The notes below the pieces were generated by a model. The model ran no database searches and had not been told where the DNA came from. It saw only the letters and a program-made list of their open reading frames with translations. From Candidatus Aminicenantes bacterium (GTDB taxonomy: Bacteria > Acidobacteriota > Aminicenantia > S016-38): DNA of 64,000 bases. Location: assembly GCA_026991555.1 (NCBI GenBank), contig JALXBI010000050.1, positions 245 to 64,244 of the forward strand. Reading direction: 5' to 3'. Positions 1 through 61,337 of the stretch are shown in pieces. The translations under genes and the position numbers were made by a program. The number at the start of each line of letters is the position of its first letter. Positions within the stretch are counted from its first letter, which is position 1.

Positions 1-27
1 GAAGCCAGAAAAAAGATAAGATACTAC

Positions 28-630
28 ATGGGGAAAGAGGAATTCAGGTGGGGTGAATGGACACTTCATGGAAATCCTCTTGATACAAAACCAAAAACAG
101 CTCTCAGAATTGATGATACAGAGTGGTTTTTAACAGGCGGTTTAGGAAGCGTTACATTATTAAGAGATATAGACGGAACCATCTACAAGATCGGTCATGC
201 TGCATTTGGACCCTACACTGTTTTAAGAGGTTTAAGAGATAATAAGTTTGATTTGTATGTGTTTGGAAAGCACATTCAAGACTTTGGAGGTTATAATTTG
301 AACTTTGCAGTTCTAAGACTCAGAGATGCTTACAAATACGGTTTTACCGGTTCTCAGGAAAGATACGATATTTACATGTTGGGGCTAGGCGGTGGCTCTA
401 TCCATGTATGGTTTGAAGTGCCGAAAGGTTATGAAGTTGTTGGTTTGATGCCTAGTATATCAAAAATTGTCCAAAAGGATAAAGATGGGGAAATCGTAAA
501 TGTATATGTTAGGGGAATGTATGTGGCATTGAAGAATAAAGAAACTGGGGAAGCATCTATCATTGGAGTTGGTGTTGGGGAGGATAAATATGGCATTTCC
601 GTGACTTTTCTCTTAGCCACGTCTAGGTGA
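28..630 (+). CDS. hypothetical protein, first gene of the low-GC accessory island; may extend 5' beyond the window edge
   Basis: ATG at 28 with an open frame back to position 1. No family recognised. The Gly-rich segment GVGVGEDKYGIS near the C-terminus loosely resembles a RAMP/Cas6 G-rich loop. Local GC is lower than the rest of the window by eye. Confidence 0.4.
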   Translation: MGKEEFRWGEWTLHGNPLDTKPKTALRIDDTEWFLTGGLGSVTLLRDIDGTIYKIGHAAFGPYTVLRGLRDNKFDLYVFGKHIQDFGGYNLNFAVLRLRDAYKYGFTGSQERYDIYMLGLGGGSIHVWFEVPKGYEVVGLMPSISKIVQKDKDGEIVNVYVRGMYVALKNKETGEASIIGVGVGEDKYGISVTFLLATSR

Positions 631-2228
631 AAAGGATGGTAATAGTTTTCCAAATTGATCTAGTGGGTGGTGAAACAGGAAAGAATCGACACTTGACACG
701 AGAAACAACAAAAACCCAACTCTCTCAACTCGAACAAGAACTTCGAGGATATGGCTTCACTAACGAAGAAATTAAATTCATAATAAGCAGTCCGGAATTC
801 GTTAGAGATATTTTAGTGGCTTATCTTAACCTGAAAAAACGAGGAGTAGATAAGAAAACTTTACCTAAGCAGGTTCTTGATCAGCTTAATCTTCCAGCTA
901 ATCCACCAGCTTTTATTCCAATGGGATATGTAAATATAGCAAATCCTCTGGTTCTTTATTCTCAGTTGGTAAACCGTTTTGTTGATAAATTTCAAAAAAT
1001 GGAGAGCGAAGGAAAAAATTTAGCATCTCTCCAAAACCTCATAGAACAAAGATTTTCATTCAAACTGGATGGTGAAAGGGTTTGGATTTATCTAAGTAAA
1101 GGAGAGGAAGGAAAGGCAATGGAGCAGGAGAAATGGAAATTCCGCATACCACCAGGATTACGCAAGAGCAACCCGGATTTGGCTCGGTTTTTTGATTTAA
1201 GCAATAAATTCAATATTGATGCGAGATCATGGATTGAGAATCCAGAAGAAGCGGCTAAGCAGTTTAATGATGAGGTTAGAAAGAGATTATTTAAAAAGAC
1301 TGAAAAGAAACCCGATTTAGTATTACACTTCGCAGAAATGTTCAAAGATATTAAATCAGATAAATTCCAACCTAAAAATTATGAAAGAGAACTAACATTC
1401 ATACGCGTGTTCTCCGAGTTTGATAATGCTGGAAAGTCAAAGCATAAGGACTATGTTAGAACCTATGTTTTAATACCTCTTGCAACAGGAGAAGCAACTG
1501 GAACTCAATTACTGAAAAGGGCAAAAGGTGATTTAAAGACTCTATTAGGACTTAAGGACGAAGATATTAACAAAATGGGTAAAACCGAACTTCTTATAAT
1601 GTGGGGAATTGTGAAAGGAGAGTATAACTGGTACTCATCTGTTCTTGGAGAGAGATTAGCAAAACTTGCACTCCGCTATCTTTACAGAGCAGATAAACGC
1701 CTAAATAAACGCTTTTTATCTTCTCTGAATTATCCTCCTGAAGAATATGGAAAAGAATATGAAATAGCAGTTGAGTTAGTTAAGTTTGATGTTAAGAATA
1801 GAAAGTTAAGTAAAAAAGATGGTAAACTTTTAGTAGTAGCACTAGCTAAGAAACTTACAGAAGATGCTTCCTTCTTTGTTAAAAATAAAACACTAACTCC
1901 AGATGAAGCGGCTTCCATGTTAAATGGATATATCTCCACAGTAGGAAAACTCTTTGGAAAGGATGTTGGGGATTTAGTCAAAGGAGCAATTCTAAGAACA
2001 TTGATACAGCTTGGAATGGAAGAAGTAACAGGTAAAATGCTTGATTTATCGTTGTCCAGATTCTTCAATAAAGACGGTTCTATAAAGAAAATCTCTGAGC
2101 AAGATGCAAAGGAAATTTTAGAAGAGTTAAATTTTGTCTTAGAAATGCCTCTCCCAGTAGGTCCAAACCGTCAAAACCAAATTTTCCCTCTGTTTCAGAA
2201 TTCAGCGTGGAACATTCTTTATTTGTAA
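627..2228 (+). CDS. hypothetical 533-aa protein, translationally coupled to the upstream ORF; no recognisable catalytic motif
   Basis: The start overlaps the stop of the previous gene (GTGA; GTG at 627 or ATG at 636). The ORF is long, AT-rich and uninterrupted, and predicted soluble. Confidence 0.4.
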   Translation: MKRMVIVFQIDLVGGETGKNRHLTRETTKTQLSQLEQELRGYGFTNEEIKFIISSPEFVRDILVAYLNLKKRGVDKKTLPKQVLDQLNLPANPPAFIPMGYVNIANPLVLYSQLVNRFVDKFQKMESEGKNLASLQNLIEQRFSFKLDGERVWIYLSKGEEGKAMEQEKWKFRIPPGLRKSNPDLARFFDLSNKFNIDARSWIENPEEAAKQFNDEVRKRLFKKTEKKPDLVLHFAEMFKDIKSDKFQPKNYERELTFIRVFSEFDNAGKSKHKDYVRTYVLIPLATGEATGTQLLKRAKGDLKTLLGLKDEDINKMGKTELLIMWGIVKGEYNWYSSVLGERLAKLALRYLYRADKRLNKRFLSSLNYPPEEYGKEYEIAVELVKFDVKNRKLSKKDGKLLVVALAKKLTEDASFFVKNKTLTPDEAASMLNGYISTVGKLFGKDVGDLVKGAILRTLIQLGMEEVTGKMLDLSLSRFFNKDGSIKKISEQDAKEILEELNFVLEMPLPVGPNRQNQIFPLFQNSAWNILYL

Positions 2229-2471
2229 ATATCTCCCCTGGCGCCTATGTAATCCACATAGATGGAGTTTTCCTCCTCTTCCATCCAGAAAATTACCCTG
2301 TATTTCCCAACTCTGAACCTCATATACCCTTCCCATTCTCCAACCATCTTTTTCACCCTAAGAGTTTTAAAATCACCCTCAGCAAGGAGCAGGAGTCGTT
2401 GTTTGATTTTTTATCTCTGTGATGGGGCAAGTCTCTTCAGAAAACTGGCTGCTCGTGGGTGAACTTTTACT

Positions 2472-2663
2472 TTATATTTCTGCAAGGTTCACATAAGCGT
2501 TGGGGTCCTTTCTTTCCTTTTTGGCCTTTTTCAGGTGCTCTTTTACTTCCTCTTCAAGGTCCAGGCCCAGAAGTTCCTCTATTTTCTTGTATTCTTTCCA
2601 GGGAATGATTATCTCCGCAGGTTTTCCCTTTTCGTCGTAAATTATTTTCTTGTGAATCTTCAT
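2472..2663 (-). CDS. small antitoxin-like protein (Phd/YefM- or AbrB-like, uncertain), orphan
   Basis: An internal start MKIHKK is preceded by GGAGG. The KIIYDEKGKPAEIIIPWKEYKKIEELLG pattern resembles the DNA-binding antitoxin families. Confidence 0.3.
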   Translation of the reverse strand: MKIHKKIIYDEKGKPAEIIIPWKEYKKIEELLGLDLEEEVKEHLKKAKKERKDPNAYVNLAEI

Positions 2664-2827
2664 TCCTCTTCCTCCAGATACATTATACCATCTTCCCACC
2701 ATGCACGAAAAGGCACTGAGCCTCTCTTCCCTAAAAAGCGAAAAGGGAACAGACCATGAACCAAAGGTTCGGGCAAATTTTATTTGATTTTTTCATACAT
2801 TATCATATAATATATGAGGAAGTAATC

Positions 2828-3055
2828 ATGGTGAGAAAAACTGTTAACATTAGCGAAGATTTAATAAAAGAACTCAAGGTATATGCCAGGAAGGAATCCA
2901 GGGATTTTTCCAGCGCATTGAGGCACATCTTAAGGATAGGTCTTCTTGCCCTTCAGAACCCGGAACTTACAGCCAGGGAAATAATGGATATTCTGGAAGC
3001 AAAAGCGGAACTGGAAGAAGGTCTGATAGAGGAATTTACCCTTGAAGATATTTGA
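2828..3055 (+). CDS. ribbon-helix-helix (CopG-like) antitoxin
   Basis: ATG at 2828 (MVRKTVNISEDLIKELKVYARKE...). Short and basic, and it overlaps the following RelE-like gene by 14 nt. Confidence 0.55.
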   Translation: MVRKTVNISEDLIKELKVYARKESRDFSSALRHILRIGLLALQNPELTAREIMDILEAKAELEEGLIEEFTLEDI

Positions 3056-3269
3056 AACGAGAAAATTTCGGCAGTTGAGGAAAAAAATCAGGGATGATAG
3101 GGAGAAGCAAGCCCTTAAGAGGGCAATATTGGAGATCGTCCAGAACCCCCTGGCTGGCAAGAAGTTGAAGGGGGAATTCAAGGAATTTCGCAGTTTCCGA
3201 TATTTTTCCAGGGGCCAAGAAAGGAGACTTATCTATAAATACGAAAATCAGGCGCTTTACCTTATCTAA
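3042..3269 (+). CDS. relE: RelE/ParE-family toxin, C-terminus apparently truncated
   Basis: MKIFETRKF...LEIVQNPLAGKKLKGEFKEFRSFRY...RLIYKYENQALYLI matches the RelE/ParE pattern, but it stops before the usual C-terminal ighRkdvY segment. The last codons lie inside repeat block A1. Confidence 0.55.
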   Translation: MKIFETRKFRQLRKKIRDDREKQALKRAILEIVQNPLAGKKLKGEFKEFRSFRYFSRGQERRLIYKYENQALYLI

Positions 3270-3329
3270 AATTTTCTCTACTGGAGTTCTACATTCTATC
3301 AGTCCATTTTGCCCTGGAAGTAAAGTTCT
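3230..3329. repeat. split direct repeat copy A (38-nt block 3230-3267 and 31-nt block 3299-3329)
   Basis: Block 1 is tatctataaatacgaaaatcaggcgctttaccttatct. Block 2 is tcagtccattttgccctggaagtaaagttct. Both recur at 4284-4387. Confidence 0.7.
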
Positions 3330-3342
3330 GTGTCCCCAATCA

Positions 3343-3360
3343 GGGACAGGTCCGATTTTG
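3343..3360 (-). repeat. single inverted copy of the GGAC-CT-GTCC short-repeat family
   Basis: gggacaggtccgattttg is the near reverse complement of aaaattcggacctgtccc, which is repeated at 53251-53327 and 57560-57776. Confidence 0.5.
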
Positions 3361-3400
3361 ACCTTCCAATAAATCGGGTGACTCATGATAAAATAGTCTT

Positions 3401-3679
3401 ATGAAGGAAAAGAGATTAAAGGAGCTTATAGAAAAAAATAAGCCTCTTTTCTGGTGGATTAAGGAACCGGATAAAATAAGCGAAGAACTGGTGGTTGAGA
3501 CTATTCTAAACTACGGAACCAGAGAGAGCGTAAAGGAGCTTTTTGAAATTCTTGGAACGGAAAGGGTGGCGGAGATATTCTTTTCTCAGATAAAAAGAAA
3601 GAGGAAGAATTACCATCCGAGAACCATAAATTTTTTCACCCTTTATTTCAGCCATGCACGAAGAGATTCTAACACCTGA
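3401..3679 (+). CDS. small partner protein of the AbiEii-like toxin (putative antitoxin)
   Basis: ATG at 3401. Overlaps the downstream nucleotidyltransferase gene by 26 nt. Basic C-terminus. Confidence 0.3.
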   Translation: MKEKRLKELIEKNKPLFWWIKEPDKISEELVVETILNYGTRESVKELFEILGTERVAEIFFSQIKRKRKNYHPRTINFFTLYFSHARRDSNT

Positions 3680-4268
3680 ACAGAGCGAACTCCTCCCCTT
3701 GCTGAAGATGTTTTCCGAAGAATTTTATCTTGCTGGAGGAACTGCAATAGCTCTTTACCTCGGCCATAGAAGGTCCATTGATTTTGACCTTTTCACGAAA
3801 AAACTTCATCCCATGAGGGTAAAGAACAGGATAAAAAAATCAGGGTTCAATGTGGATAGCATAATATTTGAAAGCAGCGAGGAGCTCCACTTGGTGGTAA
3901 ACTCTGTCAAAATAAGTTTTGTGGAGTTTCCCTTTGATATTCCTCCTCCTGTGCTTTTCAAAGACATCATTACCCTTCCCTCCCTTTTAGATCTTGCAGC
4001 GATGAAGGCTTACGCTCTGGGAAGCAGGGCTAAATGGAAGGACTATGTGGATTTTTATTTTCTTTTAAAATACAAATTCACGGTGGAAGAAATCATAAAA
4101 AGGGCAAAGGAGATATTCTCAGGCTATTTCAACAGTAAGCTTTTCCTTGAACAATTGGCTTATTTTGAGGATATAGATTACAGCGAAAATGTGGATTTTA
4201 TAAAAGAGGCTCCTTCTGATGAGGAGATAAAGGAATTTTTAAGGGAGGTTTCCCTGCAGGATTTTTAG
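3654..4268 (+). CDS. AbiEii/AbiGii-family nucleotidyltransferase toxin (type IV TA / abortive-infection family)
   Basis: The N-terminal YLAGGTAIALYLGHRRSIDFDLF motif is typical of this nucleotidyltransferase family. Confidence 0.6.
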   Translation: MHEEILTPEQSELLPLLKMFSEEFYLAGGTAIALYLGHRRSIDFDLFTKKLHPMRVKNRIKKSGFNVDSIIFESSEELHLVVNSVKISFVEFPFDIPPPVLFKDIITLPSLLDLAAMKAYALGSRAKWKDYVDFYFLLKYKFTVEEIIKRAKEIFSGYFNSKLFLEQLAYFEDIDYSENVDFIKEAPSDEEIKEFLREVSLQDF

Positions 4269-4283
4269 CCCCCTTGCAAAGCC

Positions 4284-4387
4284 TATCTATAAATACGAAA
4301 ATCAGGCACTATACCTTATCTCCTTTGGTCCCAGGGAGAAGATTCTTTTTATAATCTCAGTCCATTTTGCCCTGGAAGTAAAGTTCT
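4284..4387. repeat. split direct repeat copy B (block 4284-4321, 36/38 identical to A1; block 4357-4387, 31/31 identical to A2)
   Basis: Direct comparison with 3230-3329. The internal spacers differ (31 vs 35 nt). Block B2 overlaps the stop of the minus-strand gene 4357..6132. Confidence 0.7.
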
Positions 4388-6132
4388 ATGCCCTTTACCG
4401 CCCGTAGGCCGTCGGCTATGGCTGATATGGCATCCGCCACCCTGTTGGCCACATCTCCTCCTGCGAATATCCCTTCCACCGAGGTCATCTGCCGGTGGTT
4501 TACCTTTATTCTTCCCCTTTCCACTTCCATTTTCTCGGCTATTTCCGGGGGAAGGAAACTCAGGTCAGCCTGCTGGCCTATGGCAACTATTATCCTGTCC
4601 ACCACAAGCTCGTATTCCTCCCCTTCTATAAGAACAGGTTTGGGCCTCTTTCCTGGCCCCTGGTCCACCATTTTCGCCTTTCCGTAAACCAGTTTGACTT
4701 TACCTTCAGGGGCATCCTCTACCCTTATGGGGATAATCTTTTCCCATATCCTCACCCCTTCTTCCTCTGCCCCTTCAATTTCCTCGTGGTCTGCGGGCAT
4801 ATCCACCTTGCGGCGGCGATAGGCTATGGTAACTTCGGCTCCCAGTCTGCGGGAAACCCTGGCAGCATCCATGGCCACATCCCCTCCACCTATGACCACC
4901 ACCTCTTTCCCAACCTCCACAGGTTCTTTGAAGTTAATCTTTCTGAGAAAATCTATGGCATAGATTACATTAGGATGGTCTTCTCCGGGAACCCCTAAGG
5001 TCCAGGGTTTCATAAGTCCAACCCCTATGTATATGGCATGGTGTTTTTTCATGAGTTCCCTGAACCTCTCCTGGTCCACGAAATAGTTAAGCTTAAGTTC
5101 CACACCCTGGCTAAGTATGAAATCCACTTGTTTTTTAAGGGATGGGAAGGGGAAGCGGTATTTGGGAATTCCCGCCATGGTCATGCCGCCCGCCTCAGGC
5201 ATGGCCTCGTAAACGGTTACCTTGTATCCCCGAAGGGCAAGGTAGTAGGCGGCGGTGAGCCCCCCAGGGCCTGCCCCTATTATTCCCACGGATTTGTCCT
5301 TGGGCTCTGCCTTCTTAACCTTTATTACCTGCTTCAGGTCAGAGAACCTTTCAGTGGCAAACCTCTTGAGCCATCTTATGGCAACGGGGTCGCCCTCGTG
5401 GCCTAAGGAACAATAGGATTCGCACCTTCTGGTGCAGACCTTTCCGCAGAGCTCCGCAAAGGGGTTGTTCTCATACATGATGTTCACGGACCTGGCGTAT
5501 TCCCCAGAGGCTATGGCCCTTATGTAATCGGGTATGTGCATGCGGTCAGGACATCCGGCTATACAGAGGCCACATCCCACGCAGCGGTCCGCCTCCCTGC
5601 GGGCCTCCTCCTCGGCATACCCCAGGACCACCTCGGCAAAGGTCTCCACCCTTTCTTCCGGAGGAAGTTCCCTCATGGGAACCCTGTGGTAATCGGTGAA
5701 ACTGTGCTCCTTGTCCTTCCTGTATCCCTTTTCCTTTTTCTCAAATCCCTTTATGTGATAACCGGGTATGTAAACGAAGTCGTCGGGGGTTTCCCTTACC
5801 CAAATGTATTCGTTGGTCATTCTCAAGGAGGTGGTGGGACACGAGTCCACGCAAAGGCCGCACCAGCAACACCTTCCGTAATCAATTCTGGGACGGAAGC
5901 CTGAATCCCCCTTCTTGGGCTCTATTCCCTCCACAGGGACCATATCTATGGCTTCATTGGGACAGACTGCGGCGCATGTTCCGCACCCTATGCATTTTTC
6001 AAGGTCATTTACATGGAATCCCCTGTATCTTTCGGCAGCCTCCCTGGAAACCTTGGGAACGAGGATGGTATGGGGCCTTTTGGCTATCTGCCTCCAGGCA
6101 CCTAAGGGTTTTAAAACTTCTTTGAGTCCCAT
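4357..6132 (-). CDS. fusion protein: NuoI/MbxN-like 2x[4Fe-4S] ferredoxin plus GltD/NfnB/SudA-like NAD(P)H-dependent FAD oxidoreductase
   Basis: N-terminus has CIGCGTCAAVCP and CCWCGLCVDSCP (a NuoI-type dicluster). Next come CVGCGLCIAGCP and CGKVCTRRCESYC (GltD N-terminal Fe-S region). Then GIIGAGPGGLTAAYYL (FAD Rossmann fold) and VVVIGGGDVAMDAA (NAD(P)H Rossmann fold). RBS AGGGAGG lies upstream. Confidence 0.7.
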   Translation of the reverse strand: MGLKEVLKPLGAWRQIAKRPHTILVPKVSREAAERYRGFHVNDLEKCIGCGTCAAVCPNEAIDMVPVEGIEPKKGDSGFRPRIDYGRCCWCGLCVDSCPTTSLRMTNEYIWVRETPDDFVYIPGYHIKGFEKKEKGYRKDKEHSFTDYHRVPMRELPPEERVETFAEVVLGYAEEEARREADRCVGCGLCIAGCPDRMHIPDYIRAIASGEYARSVNIMYENNPFAELCGKVCTRRCESYCSLGHEGDPVAIRWLKRFATERFSDLKQVIKVKKAEPKDKSVGIIGAGPGGLTAAYYLALRGYKVTVYEAMPEAGGMTMAGIPKYRFPFPSLKKQVDFILSQGVELKLNYFVDQERFRELMKKHHAIYIGVGLMKPWTLGVPGEDHPNVIYAIDFLRKINFKEPVEVGKEVVVIGGGDVAMDAARVSRRLGAEVTIAYRRRKVDMPADHEEIEGAEEEGVRIWEKIIPIRVEDAPEGKVKLVYGKAKMVDQGPGKRPKPVLIEGEEYELVVDRIIVAIGQQADLSFLPPEIAEKMEVERGRIKVNHRQMTSVEGIFAGGDVANRVADAISAIADGLRAVKGIELYFQGKMD

Positions 6133-6142
6133 TTTTTCCTCC

Positions 6143-7258
6143 CTATCTTTCCATTTCAGGCGGACAGGTCTGAAGGGAAACCATTATGGGCGCAACATCC
6201 GCTATGTTCTGCCCAACCAGCAACCTTTCAAGAAGGGTTATGCCGTGGACGAAGGAGGGTCCGTTGACATGAACCCTTCTGGGCTTGTCAGAGCCGTCGC
6301 TCACCATGTAGTAGCCGAATTCCCCCCTGGTGGCCTCGGATTTAACATAGGTTTCCCCAGGTGGAATTTTCCAGTAAAGGACATTGGGGAGCCGGGCAAG
6401 GAATTCTCCCTTGGGCATTTTCTCTATAATTTGCCTTATAAGGTTTATGCTCAGGTCTATTTCCCTTCGCCTTACAAGGAGCATGGCCCAGGCATCGCAG
6501 CCATCCTCTGTTATCACATCAAAATCAAGGTATGGATAAGCCTCGTAAGGATGGTCCTTCCTCACATCGTAGGGGAAACCACATGCCCTGGCCACAGGAC
6601 CGGTTATCCCCATCTCGTCCACCCAGTCCCTGGGAATTTTCGCAAGCCCCTTCAGCCTCTTCTGCACCACGGCATTTTCCATTATTATCTCGTCGTATTC
6701 AGGAAGCCTCTGCTCTATAATGTCCATTAACTTAAGAACCCTCTCCTCAAAGCCCTCGGGAAGGTCCTTCCTTACCCCTCCTGGCATTATGTAAATGTGA
6801 TAAATTCTTCCTCCTGTGAGTTCCTCAAAGAGGTCAAGGATGTAATCCCTGTCCCCAATTCCCCACTGCACAGGGGTGGAAAGTCCCATGGAGCCTGCTA
6901 TCCCTCCATACCACATGATGAACATCTGGAGGCGGGAAAGTTCAAGGACTAAGGTCCTTATCCACTTTGCCCTTTCAGGAATCTCTATGCCGGCCAGTTC
7001 CTCAAGGCCCCTGGCAAAGTTTTCCTCGTTGGTGTCAGGCTCTGGAACGCAAATTCTGCAGACTAAGGGGAAGCTTTTTATGTAAATACGCCTTTCCATT
7101 AATTTCTCAAATCCCCGGTGGAGGTATCCTATGTGGGTTTTTGCCCAGGTTATAGTATCCCCTTTAAGGAGAACCTCCACGCTCATGTTTCCGGTTACCC
7201 CTGGATGCTGGGGACCTATGAAGAGTCTTACTTCTTCCTTGCTCATTTTCTTCTCCAT
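6143..7258 (-). CDS. NuoD/[NiFe]-hydrogenase large-subunit homologue (MbxL/MbsL-like), incomplete NiFe ligand motifs
   Basis: FIGPQHPG...HIGYLHRGFEKL is the NuoD/EchE signature. The N-terminal motif is CRIC, followed by VPEP rather than the usual xxxH. The C-terminus ends QTCPPEMER instead of DPCxxCxxH/R. Confidence 0.75.
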   Translation of the reverse strand: MEKKMSKEEVRLFIGPQHPGVTGNMSVEVLLKGDTITWAKTHIGYLHRGFEKLMERRIYIKSFPLVCRICVPEPDTNEENFARGLEELAGIEIPERAKWIRTLVLELSRLQMFIMWYGGIAGSMGLSTPVQWGIGDRDYILDLFEELTGGRIYHIYIMPGGVRKDLPEGFEERVLKLMDIIEQRLPEYDEIIMENAVVQKRLKGLAKIPRDWVDEMGITGPVARACGFPYDVRKDHPYEAYPYLDFDVITEDGCDAWAMLLVRRREIDLSINLIRQIIEKMPKGEFLARLPNVLYWKIPPGETYVKSEATRGEFGYYMVSDGSDKPRRVHVNGPSFVHGITLLERLLVGQNIADVAPIMVSLQTCPPEMER

Positions 7259-7785
7259 TCGTCGTATTGCTCGGAAATCTGCTTTCTTATGATTATCCCG
7301 CTCTTGGGCTCCCTTTCCCCGAACTTCTCCATGGAATACTTCAGGGTATCAAAATCCCTTCTCATGGGTGGAATATCGTCCCAGTCCTCAAGGATGAGTT
7401 CCTCATGCTGGGTGGGATTCCCCTCAAAATCCACCCCGAACATCTCGTGAATCTCCCTTTCGTAGGCCTCTGCCTGGGGCCAGATTTTGTATATGGTCTG
7501 AAACTTAGGAGCCTCCCGGGGAATTTTCGTCTTAACCAATATGTTGTGCTTCTTTGAGGGATTCCACAGGTTATAGACCAGTTCAAATTTCCCCTCCTCT
7601 ATCCAGTCCACGCAGGAAATCATCACCAGGGTTTTATACCCCTCGTATTCTTTAAGGTAAACAAGGAGAGGAATGAGGTCCTTTTCTGTGGTCCCGACCA
7701 GGGCCAGATCCTCTCTTTTTTCCTGGCTCTGGAGAATCTCAAATTTTTCCTTCAATTTATCCAAAATCTCCATTTTCCACCTCAC
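7243..7785 (-). CDS. NuoC/MbxK-like subunit
   Basis: 180 aa, NADH dehydrogenase 30-kDa subunit-like. Sits between the small- and large-subunit genes. Confidence 0.7.
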   Translation of the reverse strand: MRWKMEILDKLKEKFEILQSQEKREDLALVGTTEKDLIPLLVYLKEYEGYKTLVMISCVDWIEEGKFELVYNLWNPSKKHNILVKTKIPREAPKFQTIYKIWPQAEAYEREIHEMFGVDFEGNPTQHEELILEDWDDIPPMRRDFDTLKYSMEKFGEREPKSGIIIRKQISEQYDEWRRK

Positions 7786-8360
7786 CAGTTATAATTGGGC
7801 ATTCGCCAGTTCTTTATTATTTTCCTCTGGTTCTCCCTATACCAATCCAGGTTTTCAATGTATTTTTTCCACCCATCTGCCTTTCCGCTGTCTATAAGCT
7901 CCTGAAGCCTCTTAAACCCGGCTAAGATGGCCTCGGGTCTGGGCATACATCCCGTAATCCAGACATCCACCGGAAGGTAAAGGTCCAGTCTGTTTATGGC
8001 ATTGTAGGAGTCGTAATACATTCCCCCGTTTATGGGACAGGCCCCTAAGGCCACCACATATTTGGGGGATTGCATCTGCTCGTAAACCCTTATGACCCTC
8101 TTAAGGGTTTTCACCGTGAGGTATCCGCTTATTATAAGAACATCTGCCTGACGGGGGGTCCCCACCATCCTCATGCCCAGCCTTTCGGCATCAAACCTGG
8201 AGGTGAAGGTGGGACGAAGTTCTATGGAACCGCAACCTGTCCCGTAGGCCACCACCCACAGGGACCTCGCCCTTGCCCAGTCGTTTATTTTTCTGAAAAC
8301 CCCACCGTAGGTCATTTTTTCTGGCTTTTCGTTCAGGAAATAATTTTTATCCTTTCCCAT
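7782..8360 (-). CDS. NuoB/hydrogenase small-subunit homologue (MbxJ-like), [4Fe-4S]
   Basis: GCGSIE...GTPRQADVLIISG...ALGACPINGG is the NuoB/group-4 small-subunit pattern. Confidence 0.8.
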   Translation of the reverse strand: MGKDKNYFLNEKPEKMTYGGVFRKINDWARARSLWVVAYGTGCGSIELRPTFTSRFDAERLGMRMVGTPRQADVLIISGYLTVKTLKRVIRVYEQMQSPKYVVALGACPINGGMYYDSYNAINRLDLYLPVDVWITGCMPRPEAILAGFKRLQELIDSGKADGWKKYIENLDWYRENQRKIIKNWRMPNYNW

Positions 8361-8363: not shown

Positions 8364-9275
8364 TCACCTCACCAAATAAATCCTTACAAGGTCAATGAGC
8401 CCAAGCAGGCTTGGCCAGGTCCAGAAGAAAAGCACAGATTGCTCCAAGCGAAACCTGGGGAAAACATTGGTTATGAAAAGGGGCCACAGGAAAATCACGA
8501 AGGTTTTAACGAAAGCCCAGAGCAAATTGCTGGCCCCTCCTAAGAAAAGGTTCATGAAAAGGAGGTATTTGGCCACAGCGAAAACACTCCTTCCGGAAAA
8601 CATGTAGGAAAGGAAGGTGGAGCTATATTCTGTAGGAGGTCCTATGGCTATTTCCTGGGGAGCGAGAACCACCTGAAAGGGATAGGAACCCATCATTCCC
8701 AGGAGGCTTATGAAGGCCGCGGCTGCGGCAAAGGGATGGGTAAAGAGGTGCCAGTGGAGAATTCCTCCCTGCTGTGCCCTTACTATTCCTTCAATGGAGG
8801 TGGTCTTGTCCGCCACCATTAGGACCACCACAGAGATGACGAAGGGAAGTTCGTATCCCGCCATCTGGGAAAGTCCCCTGGTAACCCCTATGGGGGCGTG
8901 GGGATGACCGCTCTCTGCAGCCCCAAGGGCCATTCCTAAGCATCCCAGAACCATGAAATACATGAGGACTATCAGGTCACCGCCGAAGGAGAAATTGCTA
9001 AGATAGGGACTTCCCACCACAATGGGAACCAGAAGGAAGGTTCCGGCGCCTCCTACCAAGCGAAACATTGGGGCTAAGTAAAACATAACCCCGTGGGAAA
9101 TGGCAGTTTTCTTTCGGAATAGCTTCCAAAGGTCAATGAAATTCTGCCATATGGTCGGTCCCCTTCTGTTCTGCATCCTGGCGGTTATTTTCCTTGAAAC
9201 TCCGCCTAAGAAAAGCCCATAGGCAATCCCGCCCAGAAGGGCTAAAAATGCGTAAAATATCTTTGCCCACATCAT
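8364..9275 (-). CDS. NuoH/HyfC/MbxM-like membrane subunit
   Basis: RKITARMQNRRGPTIWQNFIDLWKLFRKK is the NuoH signature. Multiple TM segments. Confidence 0.75.
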   Translation of the reverse strand: MMWAKIFYAFLALLGGIAYGLFLGGVSRKITARMQNRRGPTIWQNFIDLWKLFRKKTAISHGVMFYLAPMFRLVGGAGTFLLVPIVVGSPYLSNFSFGGDLIVLMYFMVLGCLGMALGAAESGHPHAPIGVTRGLSQMAGYELPFVISVVVLMVADKTTSIEGIVRAQQGGILHWHLFTHPFAAAAAFISLLGMMGSYPFQVVLAPQEIAIGPPTEYSSTFLSYMFSGRSVFAVAKYLLFMNLFLGGASNLLWAFVKTFVIFLWPLFITNVFPRFRLEQSVLFFWTWPSLLGLIDLVRIYLVR

Positions 9276-12200
9276 TTCACCCCTGTAAAGGCATAAAGGA
9301 TAATGATTGAAATGAGAATCACATAGGCGGCGTAGGTGTTAACATCCCCTGTGTAAATTCTCCTTCCCATCTCAGCAAAGGCCCCAATCCATTCGTAAAT
9401 TCCCCTCCATATTTTGCTCACTAAAGGATAAATCAGCCATTTCACCGCCCTGCGGAAGTGGTCGTAAAGACCATAACCGAAGTGAAGGTCCTGCGGGGTG
9501 CGGGGAACCTCCCCTGAATAGCCCACATCCAGCTGACCTACCTTTCTTATTCTGGCCGAGGTGAGGGCGAAGAATACCAGGGCAAGGAGGAAGGAGCCCA
9601 CAAAGAAAACCATGAGGAAGAAGGCATTCCAGTGGCCGAGTTTAGAAACAATCCCCAGGGCCTTATGATAATGGAAACCTGGGTTTTCCATACCCGGAAT
9701 ACCGGAAAGAACTTTGTTTATCGGATTGAGAAGAAGATTGGGGAAAGCACCCAGAACTCCAAGAGGAATTAAAAGGATTACCTCCACCAAGGCTATTGGC
9801 CAGGGGGCTTCCTTTACATTCTCGTTTTCCTCCTGGAGCTGGCCCAAGAAAACCGCATGGAGAATCTTAAAGCAGTAAAGGAAGGCTAAGGTGGAGGCGA
9901 GAAAAGCCACCACGGTTATAAAAATCCATCCCTTCTCAATGAGGGCCGAATAAAGGAGCCATTTTGCTGCGAATCCCGAAAGGGGAGGAATCCCGGCTAA
10001 GGCTATTATGGCAAGAAGGGTGGCAAAGAAGGTAAGGGGCATTCTCCTTATAAGCCCTCCCATGTGGGGCAGGTAGGAGGTTCCTACCCTGTAAATTATC
10101 CCTGCTGCTGCCACGAATAGAAGTCCCTTGAAAATGAAATGGTTTACCGTATGGTAAAGGGCAGCGTTCCATCCTAAGGGAGTAAAAAGGGAAAGCCCTA
10201 TAAGGATATAGCCCACCTGTCCCACGGAGGAATAGGCAAGGAGTTTTTTAAGATCGTCCTGAAACACTGCAAGGAGGGTCATGAAAAAGGCGGTCAGTGC
10301 TCCAGCCCATCCAAGAAGGTAACGAAAACCTGCCCCGGAAAGAGCAGTAAGCACATAGAGGAAAACCAGGCCAGAGCCGAAAACCCCCATTTTGGACATT
10401 ATCCCGGAAAGCAGGGGCGTAAATTCGTCGGGACTTTCCCCGTAGGCATCCCTGGCCCATATGTGGAGCGGGGAGGTGGCCATTTTAACCAGGAAGGCTA
10501 AGGAAATAAGGACCGCTGGAAGAAGGCCGTAAAATTTACCCGGAGCCAAACTCAGGGAAGGAAGGAGGTAAATTCCCCCGAGCATGGCATAAGCCCCTGC
10601 TGCGGAAAATACCGCATAAATCCAGGCAGCCTTTTTCCCTTTTCCCATGTTTATAAGGAGGAAGGAAGCCCAGCTCATTATCTCCCAGAAAACGAATACC
10701 GAAAGCCAGGTGGTGGAAAGGACAAGCCCGGCCATGGAAAAGAGAACAACCAGGTAGGCAGGATAAAAGGATGAGGAAAGTTTTTTAGAGCCGGGATAGG
10801 TGGCCAAAAGAAGGACCGCACCTCCGAAAAGAACAAGGGCAAGGAAAAACCCGTGAAGGTCGGGTTTTATGTGCGGATAGAGGGAATATATCCCGTAGAC
10901 CAAAACCCCCAAGGAGGCTATCCACTGAAGCAGCCTTGAGGCTCCAAGGAAGTAAACCAGAAGGGAAATTCCAAGAAGGAGCAAAATTTCTGGTTTTACC
11001 GGAATGTGAATTTTATCGGTGAACATTCCCCAGACCACTGGCACAGAAGCAATAAGAATCAGGGAAGATATTAATGGAGAGGCCAGATTTCTTCCCACCT
11101 TCTTTCCTTCCCCCTCGGAGGCTATCCTGTAAAACCGGAAGTAATAAACCACCTCGGCCAGGGCCCCGAGAAGAACCAGCCCCACAACCCAGGAATAATT
11201 TCTGGGAATAGCGAAGATGAGAAGTATCTTGGCCCAGAATCCCGGGAAGGGAGGAACCCCTGCAATGGAGAAAACCGATGTGGAAAAGGAAAACTTGAAT
11301 ACGGGATTGGAGGCAAGAACACCCCTCCAGCCATCAATTTCCCTTTCCTTCACATTGTCCGCAAGGAGAAAGAGGGAGGACTTGGCGAAGGAGTGATTAA
11401 AGACCAGAAGGACCATGGCAAGGCCCATCATGAGCCTTGAGGACGAAGAGAACGAAGGATTCAGGAAAAATCCGGCTGCCAGAATCAGAAGTCCCAGCTG
11501 GGCCACCGAGGAATAACCGAGGAGCCTTCGGACATCCCTCTGCCTCCAGGCGAAAAACTGGCTTACTAAATAGGTCATCCCTCCAAAGAGAAGGGCCAAG
11601 TGGAAAAAGGAAAACAGGGGAAGATAATGGGCCGTTTTTACGAAAACCAGATAAAAGGCCTTTACCGCCGCCCCTGCCAGAAGGGCCACCACCACAGGGT
11701 CTGCCCCCTGATAAACATCTAAGGCCCAGCCGTTTACAGGGAAAACCTCCAGTTCAATAAGAAGCCCGGCAAGAATCATAAGGGTAATCAGGGCCAGAAC
11801 TGCGGAGGAAATTCCCCCGGCCAGCTTGCCGGCTATATCCAGCATGTTCAGGCTTCCGGTGGCCTTGTAAAGAAAAACCACTCCTAAAAGTATGAAGGTG
11901 GAACTTATGGAACCTATAACCATGTATTTAAAGGCAGCCTCAAGGGCCCTCTCATCCTTAGAAGAAGCCACAAGCCCGTAGGCTGCTATGGAAGTAATTT
12001 CCACGAAAACGAACAGGTTGAAAAAGTCTCCGGTGAAGCTTATCCCCGTGGCACCTAAGGAGAGAAGGAGAAACAGGATGAGAGCCTTCCCTTCGGGCTG
12101 GGGAAGCCCCCTTACGAACCAGTGTATAGCACCTAAAAGGGCAATGGTGAAAATTAGAAATCCTAAGGCAGCCTCCGCTTTTCCTACCAGCAGGTTAATT

Positions 12201-12415
12201 CCTATGGGAGGAGGGAAACCGCCAATCTTTACCAGGATGGGTTTTGCGATTTTGCCTGTGATAAAGCCATAGAAATTAAGCCCTGAGACTAAAAAGTCAA
12301 AGGCAAGGGTGAGGAAGAAGAAAACCCTTGCCCATATTCTGTTGTAAACCTGAAGTATGCCTATGAAGAAGGCCGAAGCTAACGTGACTCCGATTATAAT
12401 TATGGGATTTACCAT
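9272..12415 (-). CDS. fused tandem antiporter-like subunits (MrpD/NuoN-like plus MrpA/NuoL-like, equivalent to MbxH-MbxH')
   Basis: 1047 aa. There are two successive proton-pumping-subunit cores: LLGYSSVAQLGLLILA around residue 300 and LLAYSSVGQVGYILIG around residue 730. Each has about 14 TM segments. Confidence 0.75.
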   Translation of the reverse strand: MVNPIIIIGVTLASAFFIGILQVYNRIWARVFFFLTLAFDFLVSGLNFYGFITGKIAKPILVKIGGFPPPIGINLLVGKAEAALGFLIFTIALLGAIHWFVRGLPQPEGKALILFLLLSLGATGISFTGDFFNLFVFVEITSIAAYGLVASSKDERALEAAFKYMVIGSISSTFILLGVVFLYKATGSLNMLDIAGKLAGGISSAVLALITLMILAGLLIELEVFPVNGWALDVYQGADPVVVALLAGAAVKAFYLVFVKTAHYLPLFSFFHLALLFGGMTYLVSQFFAWRQRDVRRLLGYSSVAQLGLLILAAGFFLNPSFSSSSRLMMGLAMVLLVFNHSFAKSSLFLLADNVKEREIDGWRGVLASNPVFKFSFSTSVFSIAGVPPFPGFWAKILLIFAIPRNYSWVVGLVLLGALAEVVYYFRFYRIASEGEGKKVGRNLASPLISSLILIASVPVVWGMFTDKIHIPVKPEILLLLGISLLVYFLGASRLLQWIASLGVLVYGIYSLYPHIKPDLHGFFLALVLFGGAVLLLATYPGSKKLSSSFYPAYLVVLFSMAGLVLSTTWLSVFVFWEIMSWASFLLINMGKGKKAAWIYAVFSAAGAYAMLGGIYLLPSLSLAPGKFYGLLPAVLISLAFLVKMATSPLHIWARDAYGESPDEFTPLLSGIMSKMGVFGSGLVFLYVLTALSGAGFRYLLGWAGALTAFFMTLLAVFQDDLKKLLAYSSVGQVGYILIGLSLFTPLGWNAALYHTVNHFIFKGLLFVAAAGIIYRVGTSYLPHMGGLIRRMPLTFFATLLAIIALAGIPPLSGFAAKWLLYSALIEKGWIFITVVAFLASTLAFLYCFKILHAVFLGQLQEENENVKEAPWPIALVEVILLIPLGVLGAFPNLLLNPINKVLSGIPGMENPGFHYHKALGIVSKLGHWNAFFLMVFFVGSFLLALVFFALTSARIRKVGQLDVGYSGEVPRTPQDLHFGYGLYDHFRRAVKWLIYPLVSKIWRGIYEWIGAFAEMGRRIYTGDVNTYAAYVILISIIILYAFTGVK

Positions 12416-12762
12416 TTCAACTCCTTGTATTCTTCAATTTCAAGGGTTTTCTTTTTGGAATACATGAGCATTACAATGGAAAGGGCCACTGCAGTCACCG
12501 CCACCCCTATGACTATAGCCGTAAGGACCAGAGCCTGGGGAAGGGGATCCACCACCTTGGAGGATGTGTTAACCAGAAGGTCCTTGATGTTGACGATGGG
12601 AGCGGTCCTTCCGCGGATGAAACCTAATGAAATGATGAGCACATTAACTCCCGTGTCCATAAGGGAAAGCCCTATAACTATCTTCATTATGTTCCTTTTA
12701 ACCAAAACCGCATAAAGCCCTATGAGTATCAAGAGTATTGAAGCGACGAAGAAAGCCATCAT
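12409..12762 (-). CDS. MrpC/NuoK-like small membrane subunit
   Basis: 117 aa with three TM segments and the MnhC-like sequence pattern. Confidence 0.65.
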   Translation of the reverse strand: MMAFFVASILLILIGLYAVLVKRNIMKIVIGLSLMDTGVNVLIISLGFIRGRTAPIVNIKDLLVNTSSKVVDPLPQALVLTAIVIGVAVTAVALSIVMLMYSKKKTLEIEEYKELKW

Positions 12763-13451
12763 TCCTCCTTGGTGGTATTTATCATATCGGTTATAAGGCC
12801 CGAAAGTTCGGAGCCCACTTTAAACCCCACCGCCACATATATGAGTGGAATTACACCGGCAGAAAAAAGGCGGTTCCACTGACCCAGGGGAATTATGTTG
12901 TTGGCCAGAAAACTCCCACCCCAGATGAGGCCTGCAAAACCTATAAGAACGAAGGTAATTCCTGCAAGTCCCTCCACCGTGGAAAGGGCCCTGTGGTTGG
13001 GATGGAAGGTAAAGTGGGCAAGGAGCATCAGCATTACTGCAGAGGCAATGACCGTTCCTCCCTGGAACCCTCCCCCTGGGGTCAGGTGCCCGTGAATGAA
13101 TATGTAGGCACCGAAAAGAATAAGGAGAGGATAAAGGGTCTCGGAGGCAGTTTTGACGATGAGACTGGCCTCCCTTCTTTCGTATCTTCTCCTGCAACGG
13201 CATGTGGAAAGGAGGAAAGCCAGGGCAGTAGCCGCTAAGAAAAGCACGGTTACCTCGCCAAGGGTATCAAATCCCCTGTAGTTTACCACTATGGAGGTTA
13301 CCAGGTTGGAGCCACGGTTCTCCTCAATTCCCCTGTCCACATAATGCTTGGATACCCCCCACTTCTCCTTTCCGAAGGGAAAGGAGGAGGTTATTTTGGC
13401 CATAAAGAACCCGAGAAGGATGAGGAAAATTACCGCCAGCCATTTTCTCAT
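12759..13451 (-). CDS. MrpB/MnhB-domain membrane subunit
   Basis: LVTSIVVNYRGFDTLGEVTVLFLAA is the MnhB signature. Confidence 0.65.
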   Translation of the reverse strand: MRKWLAVIFLILLGFFMAKITSSFPFGKEKWGVSKHYVDRGIEENRGSNLVTSIVVNYRGFDTLGEVTVLFLAATALAFLLSTCRCRRRYERREASLIVKTASETLYPLLILFGAYIFIHGHLTPGGGFQGGTVIASAVMLMLLAHFTFHPNHRALSTVEGLAGITFVLIGFAGLIWGGSFLANNIIPLGQWNRLFSAGVIPLIYVAVGFKVGSELSGLITDMINTTKEE

Positions 13452-13693
13452 TTCTCATACCTCTCAGTTTTTCTTATGGCGATTATGAAAATAAGGGTGG
13501 TAAGTCCTGCACCTATGGCAGCTTCGGTCATGGCCACATCAGGAGCCTGAAGGTAAAGGTAAACTATGGAAGCCACCAAGGAAACGAAACCCGCTGCCAC
13601 CACCGCTGCCAGAAGGTCCTTGGTCTCCACAGCATATATGGCCAGACCCAGCATGAGGAAAAGAAGGAAAAGCATGAAATATTCAAGAATCAT
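13448..13693 (-). CDS. MbhD/MbxD-like small membrane subunit (MrpB N-terminal-like); start chosen at the internal Met
   Basis: The ORF track extends to 13798 but overlaps mrpG out of frame. MILEYFMLFLLFLMLGLAIY...AIGAGLTTLIF resembles a hydrogenase subunit-D/DUF4040 protein. Confidence 0.45.
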   Translation of the reverse strand: MILEYFMLFLLFLMLGLAIYAVETKDLLAAVVAAGFVSLVASIVYLYLQAPDVAMTEAAIGAGLTTLIFIIAIRKTERYEK

Positions 13694-14039
13694 TTTCCGC
13701 CTCCTTGAGTCCCCTTTCCTTATCCTCGGCATACCTGTCAAGAACAGAACCCTTGGCAAGGGGAATGCCTTTATTGTGGGAGGCCCTGGCCAGGGCATGG
13801 GAAGAGACAGGATTGGTAAGAAGGATGAAAAGGGAAATTATGGCCGTTTTAAAGAACCACTGGGGGTGGTAAATGCCAACCCCCATTATAAGGGAAAGGG
13901 CTCCTAAGGTTGTGGCCTTTGTTCCTGTCTGCATCCTGTTGTAAACATCAGGCATTCTGAGGAGCCCTATGCCTGCAAGAAACAGGAATAGGGACCCCAC
14001 CAGTATAAGAAACTCACCCAGGGCACGGTAAACCATCAA
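13683..14039 (-). CDS. MrpG/MnhG-like subunit
   Basis: RMPDVYNRMQTGTKATTLGA is the MnhG signature. Confidence 0.65.
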   Translation of the reverse strand: MMVYRALGEFLILVGSLFLFLAGIGLLRMPDVYNRMQTGTKATTLGALSLIMGVGIYHPQWFFKTAIISLFILLTNPVSSHALARASHNKGIPLAKGSVLDRYAEDKERGLKEAENDS

Positions 14040-14293: not shown

Positions 14294-14771
14294 AGATCAC
14301 CTCCAGAAACCTCTCAAATCCCTTTACTATTTCCTGGGTGGCCGCTTCTATGTCCGGGCTTTTAACATCTATCCAGTGAATGTAAAGATACTGACCAACA
14401 ATATCAACGGAAAGGGTGCCCGGGGTCAGGGTTATGGAGTTGGCCAAAGCGAGTTTTCCTGCATTGGTTTTGAGCTTGGTTTTCACCTTCACTATACCCG
14501 GATTTATGGGAAGCCGGGGATTTACGACCCTGCTTGCCACATCCAGGTTTGCCTTTACCATGGCATAGAGGAAGTAGAAAAGGTAGATGAAGGCAAAAAC
14601 ATACCTTTTTGGCTGAAGCCATTTTTTAGGCTCAGGACCAGCCACCCCCGGGGCTATCATGCTAATGACCGCAGCGGTTATAAGGCCTACGGAAAGCTCC
14701 TGAGGGTCAAAGCTTCCGGTCATGGCCACCCAGAGGACGAAAAGCACAACTGTTGAAACGGCAACCTTCAT
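14286..14771 (-). CDS. MrpE/MnhE-like subunit
   Basis: 161 aa with two N-terminal TM segments and an MnhE-like C-terminal domain. Confidence 0.6.
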   Translation of the reverse strand: MKVAVSTVVLFVLWVAMTGSFDPQELSVGLITAAVISMIAPGVAGPEPKKWLQPKRYVFAFIYLFYFLYAMVKANLDVASRVVNPRLPINPGIVKVKTKLKTNAGKLALANSITLTPGTLSVDIVGQYLYIHWIDVKSPDIEAATQEIVKGFERFLEVIFE

Positions 14772-15397
14772 GCCACACTCCCTTTTTTAATCTTGTAGGC
14801 TAAATACTCTATTTCCGATGCTATTTCCACATAATTTATGACGACCCCTGGCGGGGTTTCTATTCCCTGAAGGGCAAAACTGAGAATTCCCCTTATCCCT
14901 GCCTTGGAGAGTAGGTTTACCGTCTCCTGAAGCCCCTCTGGGGGGATGGCAAGGACAGCAATTTGTGGTGCCTTTTCCCTGTAAAAGTTCTCAATTTCCC
15001 CTATATGTAAAACCTCCACCCCGTTTATCCTCTTTCCGATCTTTTTAGGGTTTCTGTCAAAGGCGGCCAGAACCTTAAAATAAGGTATCTCCCTCAGGTG
15101 GTGGATGAGGGCCCTGCCCAGGTTTCCGGCTCCCACAATTACAACTTTTATGGGTTCGTTTATTCCTATTATCTCCTCTATGGCCTTAGCGAGCTCCCCT
15201 ACCCTGTAGCCCTTCCCCCTGATGCCAAATTCACCAAAATAGGAAAGGTCCTTTCTCACCAAGGAGCCTGAGATACCGCAGCTTCGGGCAAGATCGGAAG
15301 ACTGGATCCATTCCTGGCCCTCAGCCTTAGCCTGGCGGAGACACCTGAGATAGGTGCTTAATCTCCTTATGCTAACTTCAGGTATGGTTATAGCCAT
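14768..15397 (-). CDS. rex: redox-sensing transcriptional repressor Rex (NADH/NAD+ sensor), first gene of the operon
   Basis: N-terminal wHTH IRRLSTYLRCL. Rossmann fold VVIVGAGNLGRAL plus a Rex C-terminal domain. Overlaps mrpE by 4 nt. Confidence 0.85.
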   Translation of the reverse strand: MAITIPEVSIRRLSTYLRCLRQAKAEGQEWIQSSDLARSCGISGSLVRKDLSYFGEFGIRGKGYRVGELAKAIEEIIGINEPIKVVIVGAGNLGRALIHHLREIPYFKVLAAFDRNPKKIGKRINGVEVLHIGEIENFYREKAPQIAVLAIPPEGLQETVNLLSKAGIRGILSFALQGIETPPGVVINYVEIASEIEYLAYKIKKGSVA

Positions 15398-61328: not shown

Positions 61329-61337
61329 TTTTTTTTT

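Follow-up and report, generated by a model that had tools for sequence, protein, structure and literature searches.

A conserved NuoI::GltD fusion protein in an MBS-type operon of Candidatus Aminicenantes and its possible role in NAD(P)H-driven sulfane-sulfur reduction

The genome of a Candidatus Aminicenantes bacterium (GenBank assembly GCA_026991555.1, contig JALXBI010000050.1) encodes a protein in which a NuoI/MbsN-type domain with two ferredoxin-type [4Fe-4S] motifs is joined to a GltD-like flavoprotein, and the gene for this fusion closes an operon that encodes a membrane complex of the MBS/Mbx type. The stretch of DNA that was analysed, here called the window, comprises 64,000 nucleotides, and all coordinates are counted from its first letter. 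The architecture of the fusion and the assignment of the complex are, in our assessment, nearly certain. The explanation that best accounts for the whole, a conserved MbsN/NuoI::GltD fusion in an MBS-type operon dedicated to sulfane-sulfur reduction driven by reduced pyridine nucleotide (NAD(P)H) and coupled to ion pumping, has in our view about an even chance of being correct.

Architecture of the fusion protein

The fusion gene and its parts, including the module that binds flavin adenine dinucleotide (FAD), are the following:

4357..6132, minus strand: nuoI::gltD-like fusion gene, 591 residues, final gene of the operon; open reading frame (ORF) with ATG start, Pfam and NCBIfam matches, full-length homologues
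5770..6117, minus strand: NuoI/MbsN-like domain (residues 6-121), [4Fe-4S] motifs C47/50/53/57 and C88/91/94/98; 6u8y_N, TIGR01971, invariant cysteines
5653..5769, minus strand: conserved linker between the modules (residues 122-160); alignment, reading frame unbroken
5341..5652, minus strand: GltD/NfnB/DPD-type Fer4_20 region (residues 161-264), motifs C184/187/190/194 and C229/233/237/241; PF14691, invariant cysteines
4408..5292, minus strand: FAD and NAD(P)H Rossmann module (residues 281-575) with GAGPGG, GGGDVA and Y438-RRR; PF07992, NfnB and NfnI alignments

A preliminary description, made from the sequence letters, had placed at 4357-6132 a single polypeptide combining a NuoI-type 2x[4Fe-4S] module with a GltD-type Fe-S/FAD/NAD(P)H module. 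The ORF spans exactly these coordinates, but the strand has to be corrected to minus, the plus-strand translation of the interval being riddled with stop codons. The motifs that had been noted are all found in the minus-strand translation: two ferredoxin-type CxxCxxCxxxCP motifs (C47-IG-C50-GT-C53-AAV-C57-P and C88-CW-C91-GL-C94-VDS-C98-P), the CxxCxxC...C Fe-S region (C184-VG-C187-GL-C190-IAG-C194-P plus C229-x3-C233-x3-C237-x3-C241) and two Rossmann motifs, of which G286-A-G288-P-G-G291 belongs to the FAD fold and G415-G-G417-DVA to the NAD(P)H fold, in a module that aligns with NfnB and NfnI. The domain call is likewise upheld by Pfam, NCBIfam and matches to solved structures: Fer4-type domains occupy residues 41-104 (Fer4, 2.8e-14, and Fer4_7, 3.8e-12, at residues 46-100), Fer4_20 (PF14691) occupies residues 161-264 (5e-27, 94 bits, cut-off 25.8) and Pyr_redox_2 (PF07992) residues 281-575 (8.9e-32, 111 bits, cut-off 26.1). 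Judged by its profile and structure matches, the N-terminus appears to be of the NuoI type rather than a generic ferredoxin. The NuoI model TIGR01971 scores 95.2 bits over residues 14-121 (model positions 7-116 of 121), below its cut-off of 113.05, the FpoI profile scores 97 bits, and the top solved match is MbsN of Pyrococcus furiosus (6u8y_N, 85 bits, residues 6-118).

Conservation of the fusion

Since the source is a metagenome-assembled contig, one may ask a priori whether adjacent nuoI and gltD genes were joined by a frameshift, an assembly error or a chimeric contig. The homologue set consists of the best-scoring 120 database matches, which are 577-619 residues long and align over 96-100% of the query at 54-93% identity. 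A genome scan with one genome per species returned 276 related stretches, from which the best 80 genomes were taken; the best 80 stretches are all near end-to-end matches to the query. The related loci that were compared number 82 (L001-L082). NCBI and ENA already list an identical protein; the cluster to which it belongs at 90% identity comprises 20 proteins of independent assemblies, and one member carries the name Candidatus Aminicenantes. As one uninterrupted ORF of about 590 residues, the fusion recurs across 80 genomes at species level and across more than 120 protein clusters, and a curated full-length family, PRK13984, exists. Conservation counts on the fusion protein refer to an alignment of 76 sequences. 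All 16 cluster cysteines are invariant in it, and the region of the linker is conserved as well, with G124 and R150 invariant and Y109, P123, P152, M153, E160 and R161 conserved in at least 90% of the sequences. Full-length homologues, independent assemblies and the conserved linker exclude an artificial fusion, to which we assign a negligible probability. A representative search with residues 1-165 returned many fragments and stand-alone NuoI proteins and was used for distant full-length relatives (Thermosipho, WOR-3), not for family size.

Beside the second NuoI-type motif stands an additional cysteine, C89 in R-C-C-W-C (5866-5868, minus strand), which is invariant in the 76 subfamily sequences and is replaced by serine in the Thermosipho homologue.

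A membrane complex of the MBS/Mbx type

Upstream of the fusion gene lie the following operon genes:

6143..7258, minus strand: NuoD/MbsL-like subunit, 371 residues; 6u8y_L match, motif counts
7243..7785, minus strand: NuoC/MbsK-like subunit; PF00329, 3.1e-30
7782..8360, minus strand: NuoB/MbsJ-like subunit; 6u8y_J, 228 bits
8364..9275, minus strand: NuoH/MbsM-like membrane anchor; PF00146, 4.2e-53
9272..12415, minus strand: fused antiporter-like subunits (MbsH + MbsH'-like), 1047 residues; two PF00361 stretches and PF10125
12409..14771, minus strand: Mrp-type module as a whole; Pfam and ORFs, same genes in L001; its six genes follow
12409-12762, minus strand: NuoK-like; Pfam/ORFs
12759-13451, minus strand: MbhE/MnhB; Pfam/ORFs
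13448-~13693, minus strand: MbhD; Pfam/ORFs
13683-14039, minus strand: MnhG; Pfam/ORFs
14036-14293, minus strand: MrpF-like; Pfam/ORFs
14286-14771, minus strand: MnhE; Pfam/ORFs

The 12-13 genes of the operon abut or overlap on the minus strand, the fusion gene being terminal, and Pfam and ORF analysis of the operon revealed neither a second NuoI homologue nor genes for NuoE, NuoF or NuoG. According to TBLASTN, the order MnhE-(MrpF)-MnhG-MbhD-MbhE/MnhB-NuoK-H/H'-NuoH-NuoB-NuoC-NuoD-NuoI::GltD, all on the same strand, is retained in 82/82 loci wherever upstream DNA is available. The carriers among the 80 genomes belong, by their record titles, to Aminicenantes/Acidobacteriota, Calditrichota, Bacteroidota, Ignavibacteria/Chlorobiota, Krumholzibacteriia, Marinimicrobia and Deferribacteres. 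In 12 loci a DHO_dh-like gene (329 residues; for example L018, ~11885-12875), absent from the window, lies 3' of the fusion gene; the eight such loci listed include four Calditrichaceae and two Melioribacteraceae records. MbsH and MbsH' form one ORF of 1047 residues in the Aminicenantes-type clade, and the TBLASTN pattern elsewhere suggests two genes.

The subunits that form the catalytic junction are closest to those of MBS. The NuoD-like subunit scores 345 bits against MbsL (6u8y_L), compared with 240 against Nqo4 of T. thermophilus and 155 against MbhL, and the NuoB-like subunit scores 228 bits against MbsJ (6u8y_J), the runner-up reaching 140. In a gap-free alignment the quinone head-group ligands of Nqo4 are replaced in the NuoD-like subunit (H38 by T22, Y87 by V71). 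C70 and C365 of this subunit correspond to MbsL C85 and C385, so that one cysteine is left of each former NiFe motif, two of the four having been lost, and the remaining two are conserved in 79-82 relatives. From these residues, the NuoD-like subunit has neither a NiFe nor a quinone site. In the NuoB-like subunit, C43, C108 and C138 align with MbsJ C28, C93 and C123, the ligands of the proximal cluster of MBS, where C25 is too distant to bind (PMC7684303). The position of C25 is taken by G40, and 68/68 relatives show 'YGTGCG' or 'FGTGCG' with glycine at this place, a single cysteine in 'GTGCG' standing where complex I has its tandem pair. The proximal [4Fe-4S] cluster of the NuoB-like subunit is accordingly predicted to be held by three cysteines only; in MBS, the free iron of this cluster has been proposed to reduce polysulfide (PMC7684303). 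Because MbsL and MbsJ are the best matches, the quinone ligands are gone and the three-cysteine cluster is kept, the complex is assigned to the MBS/Mbx type; by these features it is neither a quinone-reducing complex I nor a hydrogenase. Membership in respiratory complex I was rejected on the absence from the operon of NuoEFG, of H38/Y87 equivalents and of the tandem cysteines.

The NuoD-like subunit has gained a further cysteine, C67, to give C67-R-I-C70; the pattern C-R-[I/F/M]-C is present in 79/79 relatives, and P. furiosus MbsL has leucine at this position. This C-R-x-C could be a redox-active pair beside the three-cysteine cluster.

The same residues bear on the possibility that the complex is a NAD(P)H:menaquinone oxidoreductase, an analogue of complex I with its three-subunit N-module swapped for the fused GltD-like domain. 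Homologues of NuoH, NuoB, NuoC and NuoD are all there, and the chamber of MBS is wide, hydrophobic and similar to a quinone chamber (PMC7684303). Electron transfer from NAD(P)H to menaquinone would be energetically ample. Many of the carrier phyla (Bacteroidota, Ignavibacteria, Acidobacteriota) are generally known to use menaquinone, which also speaks for such an acceptor. However, threonine and valine have taken the place of the head-group ligands, the NuoB-like subunit retains one cysteine at the tandem pair of complex I and three ligands in total, and NuoD and NuoB resemble MbsL and MbsJ far more than they do any subunit of complex I or NDH. We consider menaquinone reduction quite improbable.

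The flavoprotein module

Among solved structures, the C-terminal module is most similar to NfnA 9n5u_A (299 bits) and T. maritima NfnB 4ylf_B (283 bits), followed by the large subunits of P. furiosus Xfn and NfnI (276 and 273 bits, the latter NfnI-L 5jca_L), with a true GltD (6s6s_G) at 210 bits. The NfnB and NfnI alignments begin at the Fer4_20 helix, reach the C-terminus and take in the Y-R-R that follows the second Rossmann strand. Y438-R-R, which we take to be the 2'-phosphate site of NADPH enzymes, is invariant in the 76 sequences of the family of the window protein, while the Thermosipho homologue has S-L-E-R in this position. The invariant YRR(R) suggests that NADPH can be used, and the difference between YRRR and SLER suggests different nucleotide preferences in the two proteins.

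Two assignments that the flavoprotein fold brings to mind were rejected. The protein does not qualify as a glutamate synthase small subunit (TIGR01316, 328 against a cut-off of 472; TIGR01317, 177 against 448), and the operon has no GltB gene; nor is it part of an NfnAB-type transhydrogenase, for it has no neighbouring gene for an NfnA-like [2Fe-2S]/FAD partner, either in the window or at any of the 82 loci. The closest solved relatives (9n5u_A, 4ylf_B, 5jca_L) are nevertheless subunits of bifurcating enzymes and score above the true GltD, which would fit a flavin that bifurcates or confurcates, either supplying the NuoI chain with one electron and a second partner with the other, or letting ferredoxin and NAD(P)H jointly reduce the acceptor. 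In none of the 82 loci does the operon code for an NfnA-like partner or any other second branch, and GltD in glutamate synthase has the same fold without bifurcation. To this alternative we give only a slim chance.

A redox-sensing regulator upstream of the operon

The operon is preceded by a regulatory gene and a promoter-like region:

14768..15397, minus strand: gene for a Rex-type redox-sensing regulator, its stop overlapping the MnhE start by 4 nucleotides; PF06971 and PF02629
15402..15461, minus strand: promoter-like TTGATT-16-TG-TATCAT (15461-15434, extended -10), then the palindrome CTTGTTTAAGTTAGAACTTTCACAAG (15427-15402) just 5' of the rex ATG; conserved in L001, L003, L005 and L006

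An upstream rex gene is found only in Aminicenantes-type loci. The palindrome, near-perfect in L006 (CTTGTGAAAGTTAGAACTTTAACAAG), has Rex-like TTGT...ACAA half-sites with an unusually long spacer; a search for the canonical Rex operator TTGTGAA-N4-TTCACAA gave just two weak matches, both elsewhere, which is below chance expectation. Our suggestion is that the palindrome is a candidate Rex operator. The co-transcribed rex suggests that a reduced pyridine-nucleotide pool turns the operon on, and induction of this kind fits oxidation of NAD(P)H by the complex. A perfect TTGACA-16-TATAAT lies at 15474-15501 on the plus strand and faces in the opposite direction, toward a histidine kinase gene.

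Proposed mechanism

That NAD(P)H directly feeds the Fe-S chain in the membrane complex, as the preliminary description had supposed, is the natural reading of the gene arrangement, because the fusion gene is the sole NuoI homologue in a complete Mrp/NuoHBCD-type operon. As this sole NuoI/MbsN homologue carries a GltD-like flavoprotein at its C-terminus, the electron donor probably differs from the ferredoxin that serves stand-alone MbsN. The C-terminal module would act as a one-piece 'N-module', in which a hydride is passed from NAD(P)H to FAD and single electrons leave FAD for the pair of GltD-type [4Fe-4S] clusters, continue along the pair of NuoI-type clusters and arrive at the proximal cluster of the NuoB/MbsJ-like subunit. 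The free iron of the three-cysteine cluster would then reduce sulfane sulfur (polysulfide or persulfide) in the chamber of the NuoB/NuoD/NuoH-like subunits, as in P. furiosus MBS, and turnover at the junction of these subunits would drive H+ or Na+ through the fused H/H' subunit and the Mrp module. Taken by themselves, the donor, direction and acceptor proposed here remain tentative, their likelihood lying a little short of even.

Several considerations weigh against this mechanism. With NAD(P)H at about -320 mV and polysulfide at about -260/-270 mV, textbook potentials give a yield of only ~10-12 kJ per 2 e-. For comparison, MBH gains 12 kJ and ferredoxin-driven MBS 42 kJ per 2 e- (PMC8165549). 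With so small a yield, pumping through two antiporter-like units and an Mrp module would be marginal. The two hints as to the nucleotide also disagree, Rex being a sensor of NADH and the YRRR motif being indicative of NADPH. A Pfam survey of the 64-kilobase window did not reveal sulfur-metabolism genes that would support the acceptor: 30 other large ORFs encode ordinary chromosomal functions (sigma-54 regulators, type IV pilus, lipopolysaccharide, pyruvate kinase), and none is a sulfur or quinone gene. In the AlphaFold2 model built from the 76-sequence alignment, the predicted local distance difference test score exceeds 90 in the GltD part and stays below 50 in residues 1-141, that is, the NuoI domain and the linker, so that distances between the clusters of the two modules cannot be assessed from it. 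Finally, biochemical work on any member of the fused type was not found in the literature searched.

The electrons could also run the other way. In the old 'Mbx' model, and in the reading given by Degli Esposti in 2015 (PMC4758237), the protein would be a ferredoxin:NAD(P)+ oxidoreductase: reduced ferredoxin would dock on the NuoI/GltD clusters, as it does in archaeal MBS, and the flavin would be the outlet at which NAD(P)H is made, perhaps in parallel with sulfane reduction. NfnB-type modules, to which homology is evident here, work reversibly between clusters at the ferredoxin level and NADP(H), and transfer from ferredoxin to the acceptor is far more energetic (the 42 kJ of MBS). On the other hand, a flow through NuoI and FAD would skip the coupling site of NuoB, NuoD and NuoH, and yet the three-cysteine cluster and the cysteine pair (CxxC) are strictly conserved in all relatives; moreover, from the established biology of Rex, an operon under its control would be expected to consume reduced pyridine nucleotide. 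On this evidence we regard the ferredoxin-driven direction as unlikely.

Oxidation of NAD(P)H remains the direction that we prefer, and a broader form of this proposal can be outlined, which we consider possible but on balance doubtful. It holds that the operon represents a widespread class of bacterial, NAD(P)H-driven and Mrp-coupled pumps that reduce sulfane sulfur or disulfides, with an independent input module, a hard-wired three-cysteine site and a C-R-x-C dithiol. The input for pyridine nucleotides would have been gained independently of complex I, by fusion of a GltD/NfnB flavoprotein to NuoI, and the catalytic site would be unlike that of archaeal MBS, the three-cysteine cluster being hard-wired by the glycine that replaces the fourth cysteine. 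The family-specific C-R-x-C of the NuoD-like subunit could be a redox-active dithiol near the cluster, comparable to those of ferredoxin:thioredoxin reductase or heterodisulfide reductase.

The 3' flank of the operon and other features of the window

The region 1-4300, on the 3' side of the operon, is occupied by toxin-antitoxin pairs, an AbiEii pair among them, which form a strain-specific islet, and it contains a duplicated segment that reaches into the fusion gene:

2219-2356, minus strand: ParE fragment, toxin-antitoxin islet
2472-2702, minus strand: RelB-like, toxin-antitoxin islet
2756-3055, plus strand: ParD-like, toxin-antitoxin islet
3042-3269, plus strand: ParE-like, toxin-antitoxin islet
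3230..3335, no strand: repeat copy A, a 38-nucleotide block in which the ParE-like ORF 3042-3269 ends, followed by a spacer and a 37-nucleotide orphan copy of the last codons of the fusion gene; sequence comparison
4284..4393, no strand: repeat copy B, a 38-nucleotide block (4284-4321), a diverged spacer and a 37-nucleotide block (4357-4393) forming the genuine 3' end of the fusion gene; sequence comparison

A 31-nucleotide repeat overlapping the last codons of the fusion gene had been pointed out in the preliminary description, and the exact duplication (3299-3329 = 4357-4387) is confirmed, with no match expected by chance. It extends to 37 nucleotides at 35/37 identity and is accompanied by a second block (3230-3267 ~ 4284-4321; 36/38, with an exact core of 24 nucleotides), so that the duplicated segment measures about 105 base pairs, the blocks being 95% identical and the spacer diverged. 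The two copies bracket 3401-4268; the cassette between them measures about 950 base pairs and has genes for a DUF6922-like protein and a nucleotidyltransferase toxin of the AbiEii type. Close relatives have other defence genes 3' of the fusion gene (the 93%-identical L001, an N6/N4 DNA methylase and unknown genes), and BLASTN past the stop of the fusion gene found no DNA shared with them and no 'empty site' by which the insertion of the cassette could be dated. The repeat has the appearance of a scar left by recombinational (Campbell-type) insertion into a variable islet of toxin-antitoxin and defence genes, and it leaves the fusion protein unaltered.

At the far end of the window, a tRNA gene with anticodon CAT (61254-61329, plus strand) lies directly 5' of tilS (61281-62693, plus strand; PP-loop and TilS_C) and overlaps its longest ORF; its product may be tRNA-Ile2, on which TilS acts, instead of tRNA-Met.

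Comparison with known systems

Among the closest known systems is the MBS of P. furiosus (formerly Mbx, PDB 6U8Y), with which the operon shares the gene order Mrp module, H/H', M, J, K, L, N. MbsL, MbsJ and MbsN are the top solved matches, and the two vestigial NiFe cysteines and the three-cysteine proximal cluster are common to both. Whereas archaeal MBS uses free ferredoxin, the MbsN part is here extended by a GltD/NfnB-type module of about 450 residues (FAD, NAD(P)H, 2x[4Fe-4S]). Further differences are the glycine in place of the non-ligand MbsJ C25, the added cysteine of the NuoD-like subunit, the fusion of H and H' and the bacterial host.

The architecture of the fusion is itself already known, from PRK13984 and from PMC4758237, and the window protein, as far as sequence comparison goes, adds a member of a sister subfamily. 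It scores 642.4 bits against NCBIfam PRK13984 ('putative oxidoreductase', 611 positions; residues 3-589 against 8-609), below the equivalog cut-off of 946, hence the sister rank; Thermosipho melanesiensis ABR31076.1 (616 residues, PRK13984 1195 bits) has the same architecture and 41% identity over residues 4-587, but differs in having SLER for Y438-RRR and serine for C89. In the mbx-like operons of Thermotogae, the last gene of which is often rubrerythrin, a flavoprotein stands in for NuoI, and such NuoI-replacing flavoproteins were described for Thermotoga and proteobacteria (Degli Esposti 2015, PMC4758237). Consistent with this description, a rubrerythrin-like gene of about 150 residues, absent from the window, follows the fusion gene in 9 of the 82 loci (for example L015, ~11868-12325). 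T. maritima mbxA is induced by S0, in a study that does not discuss the fusion (PMC9431562). In the literature searched, the fused type is mentioned only by Degli Esposti (2015), and neither enzymology nor a structure of it was found.

The NfnB/NfnI large subunit, GltD and the N-terminal half of dihydropyrimidine dehydrogenase share with the C-terminal module, from end to end, the two-cluster Fer4_20 region and the FAD and NAD(P)H folds. In contrast to NfnB and GltD, the module has no NfnA or GltB partner gene, its first motif is a canonical CxxCxxCxxxCP and a NuoI-type domain is fused to its N-terminus. E. coli AegA/YgfT also combine N-terminal [4Fe-4S] ferredoxin domains with a GltD-like module (PRK12769, 256 bits, residues 45-586). 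Membership in this group was rejected, both scores falling far below the cut-offs (1003 and 1154) and the ferredoxin domains of AegA/YgfT not being NuoI orthologues. To our knowledge, AegA and YgfT are not encoded in Mrp/Nuo-type operons. The current annotation of the protein is 'FAD-dependent oxidoreductase' or 'glutamate synthase small chain', and the label 'gltD' is mistaken, since the gene product can now be interpreted as belonging to the membrane complex.

The N-module of complex I (NuoE/F/G) offers the parallel in function, a feed from pyridine nucleotide through flavin to the NuoI-NuoB clusters being proposed here too. The folds are unrelated, however (a GltD-type FAD domain against NuoF with flavin mononucleotide), one domain stands against three subunits, and a quinone site is missing at the acceptor end. 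Should NAD(P)H indeed be the donor, the fusion would represent a second, independent route by which pyridine nucleotides are plugged into an ion pump of the complex I type, which bears on the origin of the N-module from ferredoxin-dependent ancestors (MBH, MBS). NAD(P)H-linked sulfur reduction would then conserve energy in many anaerobic bacteria of sediments and hot springs, the carriers concerned being Aminicenantes, Calditrichota, Bacteroidales, Ignavibacteria, Marinimicrobia and Thermotogae.

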